From Parcubacteria group bacterium (GTDB taxonomy: Bacteria > Patescibacteriota > Minisyncoccia > Moranbacterales > UBA11712), in the NCBI GenBank assembly GCA_041659685.1, contig JBAZXV010000001.1:178771-242770 (forward strand): a stretch of DNA of 64,000 bases. Direction: 5' to 3'. The notes beneath the pieces were generated by a model. That model saw only the letters and a program-made list of their open reading frames with translations, was not told the origin of the DNA and searched no databases. Positions 5,074 through 24,371 of this stretch are shown piece by piece (within the stretch, counting starts at the first letter, position 1; each line of letters begins with the position of its first letter). The position numbers and the translations under genes are program-made.

Positions 5074-6095
<1,022 letters not shown>

Positions 6096-11276: not shown

Positions 11277-11382
11277 AAATCAAGGGAAATAAAAACAACC
11301 CGGCAGACTGGTTGCTAGATCATTATACGATTAATTAATTTTACTAATCAGTTTCTATGCATATTGCTTAATTATCAATTTT

Positions 11383-23691: not shown

Positions 23692-23745
23692 ATCAAAATG
23701 ACTCTGGGCGAATCGTGCAATAAGCGCTTTTGATTCATTCAGAAA

Positions 23746-23776
23746 CAAAAAAGGCCCGTCTTTCACGGGCGTTTTT
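23746..23776 (+). terminator. Rho-independent terminator after the PEGA gene
   Basis: aaaaaaggcccgt-ctttc-acgggcgttttt. Confidence 0.6.
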
Positions 23777-23808
23777 ATATATAGTCAAATGGCAAGAGCA
23801 AGAGCTAT

Positions 23809-23961
23809 TATTTCTTCCATTGAGGGATCGCTCCGCCAAACGGCGACGCTCCTTGAAACCTTGCGGTTTCAATTCTTCCACCACGGGAAAACTCACGTTT
23901 CCCCGACCCCTTTCCGCCCTTAATGTCAGGAAGCTATCGCTTTTTCCATTGAGGGGCGCGT
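23809..23961. repeat. Second copy of the conserved double-hairpin element, flanked by a 15-nt direct repeat (ccctcaatggaaRaa)
   Basis: The core at 23847-23915 (cgctccttgaaacc-ttgc-ggtttcaa...acgggaaaactcacgtttccccgacccctttcc) matches 11427-11496. Direct repeats ttccattgaggg lie at 23815-23826 and 23946-23957. It sits just 3' of rpsI. Confidence 0.5.
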
Positions 23962-24371
23962 CTGGCTTTTTTAAGGCCTGACTTCTTTCTCTCAACCACT
24001 CTTGCGTCTCTTGTTAAATATCCAAGATCTCTCAGGGGTTTTCGCAGCGATTCATTAAAAATGACTAACGCTCTTGCTACTCCAAGCCTGATTGCCTCCG
24101 CCTGCCCCCTTATTCCGCCTCCTCGAACAATAACGGAAGCATCGAACGAAGCTGTTTCCTGGACACTTATCAAAGGAGCAATGGCCGTATCGCGCAGTTC
24201 TACGGGACCAAAAAAATCATTCAGTTTGCGGCCGTTAACGATAAATCCTTCGTGAGAAGATTTCTTTTCATCCAAAGCAAAAAGCCTCACCTGGGCCACA
24301 GCAGATTTCCGTCGTCCGATACCCTTATAATACTTCGTCGGTTTCTTCTTTTCTTCTTTTTTTTCCGGCAT
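23934..24371 (-). CDS. rpsI: 30S ribosomal protein S9
   Basis: C-terminus ARRAPQWKKR. Confidence 0.9.
   Translation of the reverse strand: MPEKKEEKKKPTKYYKGIGRRKSAVAQVRLFALDEKKSSHEGFIVNGRKLNDFFGPVELRDTAIAPLISVQETASFDASVIVRGGGIRGQAEAIRLGVARALVIFNESLRKPLRDLGYLTRDARVVERKKSGLKKARRAPQWKKR

Follow-up and report, generated by a model that had tools for sequence, protein, structure and literature searches.

Two copies of a short, folded element that encodes no protein were studied in a stretch of 64,000 nucleotides of a Parcubacteria group bacterium (hereafter the window; NCBI GenBank assembly GCA_041659685.1, contig JBAZXV010000001.1, positions 178,771 to 242,770 of the forward strand). One copy lies behind rpsI, the gene of ribosomal protein S9 (locus 2), and the other behind a tRNA-Tyr gene (locus 1). 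With a probability of about 0.6, such copies belong to a non-autonomous, structure-defined family of integrative elements that is spread across Patescibacteria and replaces the ends of genes. The direct repeat on both sides of the element is best read as the equivalent of attL and attR, not as a duplication made by a transposase. By analogy with related copies, the copy at rpsI probably has the same history of gene-end replacement.

The rpsI gene is found at 23934-24371 on the minus strand, as are all features of this copy. Its open reading frame (ORF) matches Pfam PF00380 (E=1.7e-37), homologues were found, and the frame is intact, with the C-terminus ...RRAPQWKKR. The gene-proximal repeat, X_e (CCCTCAATGGAAAAAGCGATAGCT, 23932-23955), was delimited by repeat search and reading frame. 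It starts at a junction called p1, between positions 23956 and 23955, which is common to other rpsI copies and splits the Ala codon between RRA and PQW after its second base, in the window as elsewhere. X_e comprises the third base of this codon, PQWKKR, the stop codon and two further nucleotides, i.e., the working rpsI end (last seven codons and stop). It is followed by a loop (23926-23933, from the minimum-free-energy fold of 23815-23960) and by a segment X' (CATTAAGGG, 23917-23925), recognised by its sequence and by the same layout in about 45 copies outside the window. X' is an inverted copy of the first nine nucleotides of the repeat (CCCTCAATG), with eight of nine positions complementary, and pairing is possible with either repeat copy. 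In the same fold, GCCCC..CAAU pairs with AUU..GGGC, which places the stop codon inside a predicted stem-loop of X_e, loop and X'.

The conserved core then occupies 23827-23916, as supported by the covariance model described below (89 bits), by covariation in 60 copies and by folding. Its order is CGGAAAGGGGTC, hairpin A (23885-23904, loop GTGA), GTGGTGGAAGAA, hairpin B (23853-23872, loop GCAA), GGAGCG, a variable hairpin C (~23829-23849) and GCGAT. The distal repeat (CCCTCAATGGAAGAAATAATAGCT, 23803-23826) starts immediately after the core. It reads PQWKK and two stop codons and is probably the original, displaced rpsI end. Both repeats together form a direct repeat of 24 nucleotides (20/24 identical) in a unit of about 130 nucleotides. 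The first-pass annotation had reported an exact 12-mer (TTCCATTGAGGG) on both sides of a 69-nucleotide core. This 12-mer is real, and an exact 12-mer repeated within ~130 nucleotides has a chance expectation of roughly 1e-5; the repeat is longer than had been noted, and the second occurrence is at 23944-23955, two positions from the 23946-23957 given before (the first is at 23815-23826). The conserved unit also extends beyond 69 nucleotides, at the 3' side through the third hairpin to GCGAT (23827) and at the 5' side to CGGAAAGGGG (23916). Downstream, at 23754-23770, a bidirectional intrinsic terminator is shared by rpsI and a convergent PEGA-domain gene. With the rpsI stop codon before it and this terminator behind it, the element is expected to be co-transcribed with rpsI. 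The two ORFs called over the element, 23730-23981 (plus) and 23735-23995 (minus), have no Pfam match and both overlap rpsI and the element, consistent with the earlier opinion that they are spurious.

The second copy in the window follows tRNA-Tyr(GTA) (11506-11589, minus strand), which is itself preceded by tRNA-Thr(TGT) (11602-11675, minus). Its proximal repeat (11491-11527, minus) covers the tRNA-Tyr from the T-loop to the 3' end, the trailer, X' (ATCAAAC) and the first seven nucleotides of the core. The core of 80 nucleotides is at 11417-11496 (minus; 86.9 bits). In the distal repeat (11380-11416, minus), a pseudo tRNA 3' half, whose T-loop is damaged (GTTTGCAT), precedes a second ATCGAAC-AGGGAAA. 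The repeat length is 37 nucleotides here. At rpsI and at tRNA-Tyr alike, the repeats cover the gene end, and therefore both are duplicated gene ends. The shared core at 23847-23915 that had been recognised earlier is genuine, with 88% identity over 69 nucleotides to 11427-11495, the sole such pair in the 64 kilobases. The order tRNA-Thr(TGT), tRNA-Tyr(GTA), element is present in three Patescibacteria genomes (window 11380-11675, L052 ~1700-2043 and L030 ~5490-5903), so tRNA-Tyr is a recurrent target, like rpsI. Another question was whether insertion sites share a motif such as TCCCTC. This motif is not general: it lies eight nucleotides from the core at locus 1 and 0 nucleotides from it at locus 2, and it is absent in other genomes.

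Searches in other genomes showed that the element is widespread. An exact 22-base pattern from the second hairpin, searched in a collection of species-representative genomes, gave 53 stretches, nearly all from Patescibacteria metagenome-assembled genomes (MAGs) of many classes, with several, up to four, per MAG. Thirteen of the 53 stretches are at most ~350 nucleotides from a contig end. A covariance model built from 23 copies outside the window found 60 copies in about 50 MAGs across the retrieved loci. In the window it matched two sites, 23817-23926 (89 bits, E=1.5e-29) and 11412-11506 (86.9 bits), and the next-best match reached 13.6 bits. Near-identical cores are present at about 15 different targets. 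The targets include tRNAs of at least 12 species, rpsI (12 loci or more, in many lineages), the C-termini of sigma-70, MreB, an MraY-like protein and small proteins, and, in antisense, the first 10-20 codons (5' ends) of EF-G, DinB (two genomes) and rplN. Cores are 90-96% identical at tRNAs, rpsI, EF-G, DinB, MreB, sigma-70 and others, and copies of one MAG are often mutual nearest neighbours by core. Unit size ranges from ~110 to 250 nucleotides across the family. Occupancy is patchy: 7 of 80 metagenomic rpsI loci are filled, and among closer relatives L138 and L140/L141 are filled, as opposed to the empty L137 and L139. In L067, L041 and L022 the units form tandem arrays, and every unit has its own PQWKKR-stop copy. 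These data support the mobile, miniature, multi-copy and non-autonomous character that the first-pass annotation had proposed, and many loci have been reached.

The same architecture was found in nearly all copies. From 5' to 3', it consists of the gene body, the proximal repeat, the loop, X', the core, the distal repeat and the native downstream sequence. The proximal repeat is the true gene end, and the loop sometimes contains a terminator. X' is a reverse complement of the repeat start, 7-28 nucleotides long, and precedes the core in the ~45 copies mentioned above. The inverted segments are specific to each target: CATTAAGGG/CCCTCAATG at rpsI, TTCGAAC/GTTCGAA at tRNAs and GGATGC/GCATCC at DinB. 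In most copies the distal repeat begins 0 nucleotides after the core end (GCGAC). Repeat length varies from 18 to >84 nucleotides between copies, and the gene end is always spanned.

Differences between the two repeats are informative about their origin. In six coding repeats, proximal and distal copies differ at 41 codons synonymously and at 8 non-synonymously, and the third codon position accounts for 41 of the 57 nucleotide differences (P=3e-9). For instance, the MreB repeats have 13 synonymous and 0 non-synonymous differences over 23 codons, and the distal stop codon is kept. Neutral decay of the distal copy next to a gene under constraint would look mostly non-synonymous; the mostly synonymous differences therefore mean that both copies descend from functional gene ends. 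Moreover, the gene body is 5' of the element at 13 of 13 protein genes and 21 of 21 tRNAs. This polarity of 34 to 0 speaks against symmetric duplication, because that would protect genes on either side. In L044, on the reverse strand 0-200 nucleotides past the core (~5130-5330), three MreB C-terminal copies stand in a row. The third one (..GQVAFEHLDVYKRSIMTKR and stop) is more diverged, is without a recognisable core and looks like the remnant of an earlier integration.

The comparison of a filled with an empty site indicates which copy came with the element. The rpsI genes of L140 (filled) and L137 (empty) are ~90-93% identical. Before p1, L140 shares 93% identity with L137 over 120 nucleotides and 71% with L022, a Moranbacterium that carries the element. 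Over the 22 nucleotides after p1, i.e., the proximal repeat, identity is 68% to L137 and 100% to L022. The distal repeat of L140 agrees with the own gene end of L137 at 20 of 22 positions, and the following untranslated region and terminator are ~88% identical. Since the identity switches at p1, the proximal copy was brought in by the element, and the distal one is the resident gene end in its displaced position; the breakpoint that separates foreign from resident sequence coincides with the element junction. Two further features were seen at rpsI ends. In L137, L058 and L140, the native end forms a small hairpin that holds the stop codon (GCCAAACGATAGTTTGGC); it is independent of the element and is present at the empty site too. 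At the empty site of L059 (~2924-2970), CCTATTGTG-AAAAGAG follows right after the stop codon. It resembles X' and the core start and could be the footprint of a lost element.

For the window copy, X_e would likewise have been brought in by the element. Which of its repeat copies is resident is decided by analogy, because the nearest relatives of the window rpsI are at most 72% identical and both repeat copies are 20/22 identical to the empty-site relative L061. Two details fit the family analogy: the Arg codon is gone from the distal copy (CGA to TAA), and the loop and X' (CTTCCTGACATTAAGGG) resemble the element-borne segment of L063 and L019, (C/T)TTCT(G/A)ACATTGCGG.

One alternative is a classical miniature transposable element. 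A transposase acting in trans would make staggered cuts, repair would duplicate the target, and the two repeat copies would start identical and then drift. The element shares much with miniature inverted-repeat transposable elements (MITEs) and with Correia, REP/REPIN, RPE and PATE sequences: all are short, structured, multi-copy and non-autonomous, are often located just downstream of genes and break assemblies. It is small and non-coding, has many targets and is polymorphic in presence and absence. Cores are alike within one genome, and perfect repeats exist in L016, L031, L050, L029 and L052. Unlike those families, however, the element has no constant terminal inverted repeats, as X' is specific to the target, and no short duplication of fixed length, as the repeats vary in the range given above and always include the gene end. 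It carries and replaces gene ends with strict polarity to the gene body. The mostly synonymous differences also disagree with drift from identical copies, and the 34-to-0 polarity and the foreign proximal copy of L140, with its breakpoint at the junction, argue strongly against this explanation, which is improbable. In the first-pass annotation the repeats had been taken as target-site duplications. They are indeed related to the target, but their lengths, the synonymous bias, the polarity, L140 and X' do not agree with a duplication of this kind. Two signs against it had been named in advance, and each is partly seen: the repeats are absent at L013, L032, L048, L043 and L056, and the proximal repeat of the rpsI family is part of a longer unit, the one that moves.

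The core is ~80-95% conserved in sequence. Its family consensus is (A/G/C)GG(A/G)AAGGGGTC, hairpin A, G-YGG-YGGAAG-NA, hairpin B, GGAGCG, the hairpin C region and GCGAC. The hairpin C region is either a GCGAAGC mini-hairpin or a variable hairpin, and the core end reads GCGAT in the window genome. The single-stranded, purine-rich segments are almost invariant, and the hairpin loops are mostly of the G-N-N-A/G type. In the alignment of 60 copies, which was fitted to the covariance model and is hence biased towards structure, 87% of the cells pair and compensatory change was found at 29 of 31 pairs; none of 500 shuffles attained such values. Watson-Crick pairs make up 97% of the helices, and 19 G-U pairs stand against 11 A-C mismatches (not significant). 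Without a clear G-U excess, the data do not separate an RNA fold from a fold of single-stranded DNA.

Several variants of the core were observed. Hairpin C carries the insert CGAGTCCAC-NNGG-GTTGAGC in one group and GTGTTAGCG...CGCGTGCC in another; the copies listed for this variation are L047, L011, L036 and L044 (hairpin C) as well as L008, L026, L030, L038 and L039. Inserts of 20-70 nucleotides are located between hairpins A and B in L021, L030, L039, L044 and L051. In L010, L024, L042 and L056 (MAG clean1859) and in L043 (WY3.bin51), an unrelated perfect hairpin precedes the core, e.g., CCGAGTGAC-GAA-GTCACTCGG. The copies of clean1859 and WY3.bin51 also have a T-arm-like GTTCGAGTCCC after the core, and the whole is enclosed by inverted repeats of ~50 nucleotides in place of direct repeats, an arrangement that suggests a composite variant. 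At its 5' side the core reads GGGAAAGGGGTCGGGAAAACGGGA (minus strand; window 23885-23916 and 11465-11496), with four G-tracts that match a G-quadruplex motif if the loop of hairpin A is GGGA. GGGA is the commonest hairpin A loop and is found at locus 1, whereas the rpsI copy has GTGA and is without the fourth G-tract. On the reverse strand of L011, one frame stays open through the antisense of the core (..SLKPCGFNTSTAGKLPFSRPLS..), and the displaced DinB start, the element and the real dinB are in frame. The insert lengths in other copies are not multiples of three, which argues that this antisense frame is not coding.

Such a conserved fold could also be explained by a cis-acting RNA element of 3' untranslated regions and tRNA trailers, with a role in processing, stability or termination. 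It would be inherited vertically, and the repeats would be alternative pairings. Most copies are in sense orientation after tRNAs or highly expressed genes, the rpsI copy is expected to be co-transcribed, and the hairpins are strongly conserved with covariation. Furthermore, some cores without repeat or X' stand bare between two tRNAs (L013 2209-2305, L032 4737-4833 and L048 6033-6129), with a tRNA at most three nucleotides away on each side (Ile-Ala, Val-Phe). Such cores would be set free by RNase P and RNase Z, so that tRNA processing would yield a discrete RNA of ~80 nucleotides. Nevertheless, there is only a slim chance that this explanation is correct. The EF-G, DinB and rplN copies are antisense to gene and operon, and the antisense location of copies within ribosomal-protein operons speaks against a role at the RNA level alone as well as against a strict lagging-strand rule. 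Presence is patchy in close relatives, tandem arrays exist, the proximal copy of L140 is foreign, G-U pairs are not enriched, and no Rfam family matches. In Rfam, the whole window gave only tRNAs at the gathering score, and the surroundings of both copies gave nothing credible at E up to 10. The best sub-threshold scores near the copies were 19 bits for IMES-2 (cut-off 54.7) and 13.7 bits for the hairpin ribozyme (cut-off 65).

Insertion of integrative elements into tRNA genes and gene 3' ends by integrases is known to duplicate the gene end, and the element then carries the functional copy. Phage 21 and e14 in E. coli icd and the prophages and islands in tRNA genes are examples. The element described here resembles them in several respects. 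Insertion takes place just inside the gene end, the element supplies a substitute end with mostly synonymous differences, the resident end is displaced to give imperfect direct repeats, and serial integration leads to arrays of displaced ends. An element-borne proximal and a displaced distal copy are seen in L140 when it is compared with L137 and L022. In contrast, elements of the phage 21/e14 type measure kilobases, encode their own integrase and use one target. Here, units of ~110-250 nucleotides (~130 in the window) encode no protein, no recombinase recurs in the 53 loci, and the same core, 90-96% identical, is present at ~15 targets with an antisense segment that matches each.

It could be asked whether the copies are scars or miniature derivatives of larger integrative elements, such as prophages or islands with tyrosine integrases, the core being leftover attachment-site arms. 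The duplicated gene end with an element-borne functional copy is a hallmark of integrase insertion, and the tRNA junction in the T-loop is a classic integrase crossover site. However, the same 77-nucleotide core is found at ~15 unrelated targets, while integrases are site-specific. No integrase was found in any of the 53 loci, and there is no copy with a kilobase-scale insert, the expansions being small hairpins. Two core patterns searched in viral contigs had no match, so there is no evidence of a phage vector. An origin as scars accordingly has low odds, comparable to those of the RNA element. More generally, no family of recombinases, reverse transcriptases or transposases is recurrent around the copies in the 53 loci (up to 8 kilobases each). 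This was seen in an all-against-all clustering of 1193 ORFs from these loci, in which the recurring neighbours are housekeeping genes only.

If the element is indeed an integrative element that replaces gene ends, the following course may be proposed. The mobile unit would consist of the replacement gene end, the loop, X' and the core. Its cargo end would be the last seven codons and stop of rpsI, or the tRNA-Tyr sequence from the T-loop to the 3' end at locus 1. The unit would enter at p1, so that the gene body runs on into the element-borne end and stays functional. The core 3' end would be joined to the resident end, which would decay 3' of the core. Both joints would be located at the 5' edge of the helix between X' and the gene end, in a folded single strand of DNA or RNA, and would probably be made by a trans-acting enzyme encoded elsewhere. 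A folded strand that presents the site and an activity in trans that does the joining seem plausible, because both joints adjoin sequence that can pair with the same X' beside the same junction. A circle or tandem junction would read the core 3' end ..GGAGCGAT joined straight to CCCTCAATGGAAAAAGCG, and the empty allele would read ...AGACGCGC joined straight to the distal version CCCTCAATGGAAGAAATAATAG. A tentative and rather unlikely extension of this proposal is a guide-directed miniature recombination system. In it, X' beside the three-hairpin junction would pick the exact phosphodiester that is cut and joined in the folded single strand, which could be DNA served by a host enzyme so far unrecognised or RNA with ribozyme activity. 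Exit and entry at the gene end would be seamless, and retargeting would need a change of X' and cargo end together.

Several observations weigh against gene-end replacement by an integrative element. No enzyme was identified, and no circular or excised form was seen. The incoming repeat of the window copy is assigned by analogy, and the G-U to A-C ratio does not separate RNA from DNA folding, as described. The pattern in L140 could stem from an old in-situ duplication that was spread by homologous recombination, for which a crossover very near p1 is needed. The perfect repeats in L016 (77 nucleotides), L031 (49 nucleotides) and L050 (49 nucleotides) could be in-situ duplications as well. Some copies have no repeat or are the bare cores between tRNAs. 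With near-identical cores at ~15 targets, new targets must have been acquired, which a unit with matched end and matched X' fails to explain; near-identical cores at unrelated targets may reflect either retargeting or gene conversion between copies. At locus 1 of the window, as in L058, the distal repeat also includes X' and the first 6-7 nucleotides of the core. Therefore, an extra event is needed, e.g., serial insertion followed by deletion. Finally, in tRNA-targeting subfamilies the distal copy opens with a recurrent GTGAGA, or with GTTCTAG and a mini-hairpin, which fits poorly. From this recurrent start it follows that the opening bases of the "repeat" are element sequence and that the junction is in the T-loop.

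Two other groups of mobile elements resemble the structure-defined unit proposed here in the use of folded strands. IS200/IS605 elements and their hairpin-only derivatives have hairpin-defined ends, recognise cleavage and target sites by a short internal guide next to the hairpin, excise seamlessly and can be non-autonomous. Their guide has 4 nucleotides and their target is a fixed tetra- or pentanucleotide without flanking repeat, whereas here the pairing segment has 7-28 nucleotides, the paired sequence is inside the unit, the repeats are long and no common motif exists at p1, which separates the element from the PATE type too. No Y1 transposase is linked to the family, the genomes not having been searched for Y1, and some copies are antisense to ribosomal-protein operons, which is unfit for a strict lagging-strand rule. 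The attC sites of integrons and the attP(+) hairpin of CTX-phi, which uses the host XerCD, are likewise one-strand folded substrates with a stem of inverted boxes, an unpaired bulge and a variable terminal structure. They cross over at the 3' foot of the stem, cassette-like arrays are formed, and the recombinase can act in trans. In contrast to the element, attC is conserved in structure and not in sequence and inserts at attI beside intI, and CTX-phi targets dif; here, the sequence of the core is conserved and the targets are housekeeping gene ends. Boxes of the type RYYYAAC/GTTRRRY are resembled in the tRNA-targeting copies only (TTCGAAC/GTTCGAA), and the arrays follow housekeeping genes with no intI nearby. 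In sum, the element lacks the defining features of MITEs, integrase-encoding elements, IS200/IS605 derivatives, integron cassettes and Rfam families, small ribozymes and group I introns included. A literature search by keyword and literal sequence string found no description of it.

Some further candidates were rejected. A diversity-generating retroelement does not apply, as the window repeats differ by A/G, G/A, C/T and G/A, which is not adenine-specific, and no reverse transcriptase is near the loci. HDV-like, hammerhead and group I folds, tried by hand, miss required pairings, e.g., GGGAAAGG is without a partner. Hairpin-primed or fold-back synthesis as the origin of X' predicts the wrong orientation of the following sequence. 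The paper on tRNA group I introns of Patescibacteria concerns anticodon-loop introns, which are unrelated to the element. The least probable explanation is an RNA-level mobile element whose core, a small ribozyme guided by X', cleaves and ligates at the 5' helix edge on both sides to give an RNA circle for reverse transcription: p1 and the core 3' end are both at the 5' edge of sequence pairable with the same X', the single-stranded purine-rich segments are almost invariant and the element sits where it is transcribed, but known ribozyme families give no match even with E values allowed up to 10, no reverse transcriptase is near the loci, antisense copies exist, and group II introns were missing from the 95 complete Patescibacteria genomes of one survey (PMC13011429).

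Integration by replacement of gene ends would have consequences for the study of Patescibacteria. It would account for stray tRNA 3' halves, pseudo gene ends, assembly breaks and mosaic gene termini in these genomes, and the covariance model is usable for annotating such regions and avoiding spurious ORF calls. It points to a trans-acting enzyme or RNA that joins strands at a position set by a short helix beside a conserved junction, a kind of mechanism that has been useful before for programmable DNA insertion. If true, the smallest, most reduced bacterial genomes carry a family of elements of ~100 nucleotides that repeatedly swap the ends of essential genes (tRNAs, ribosomal proteins, EF-G, MreB and a sigma factor), and these swaps would cross lineage boundaries and leave the genes unbroken.

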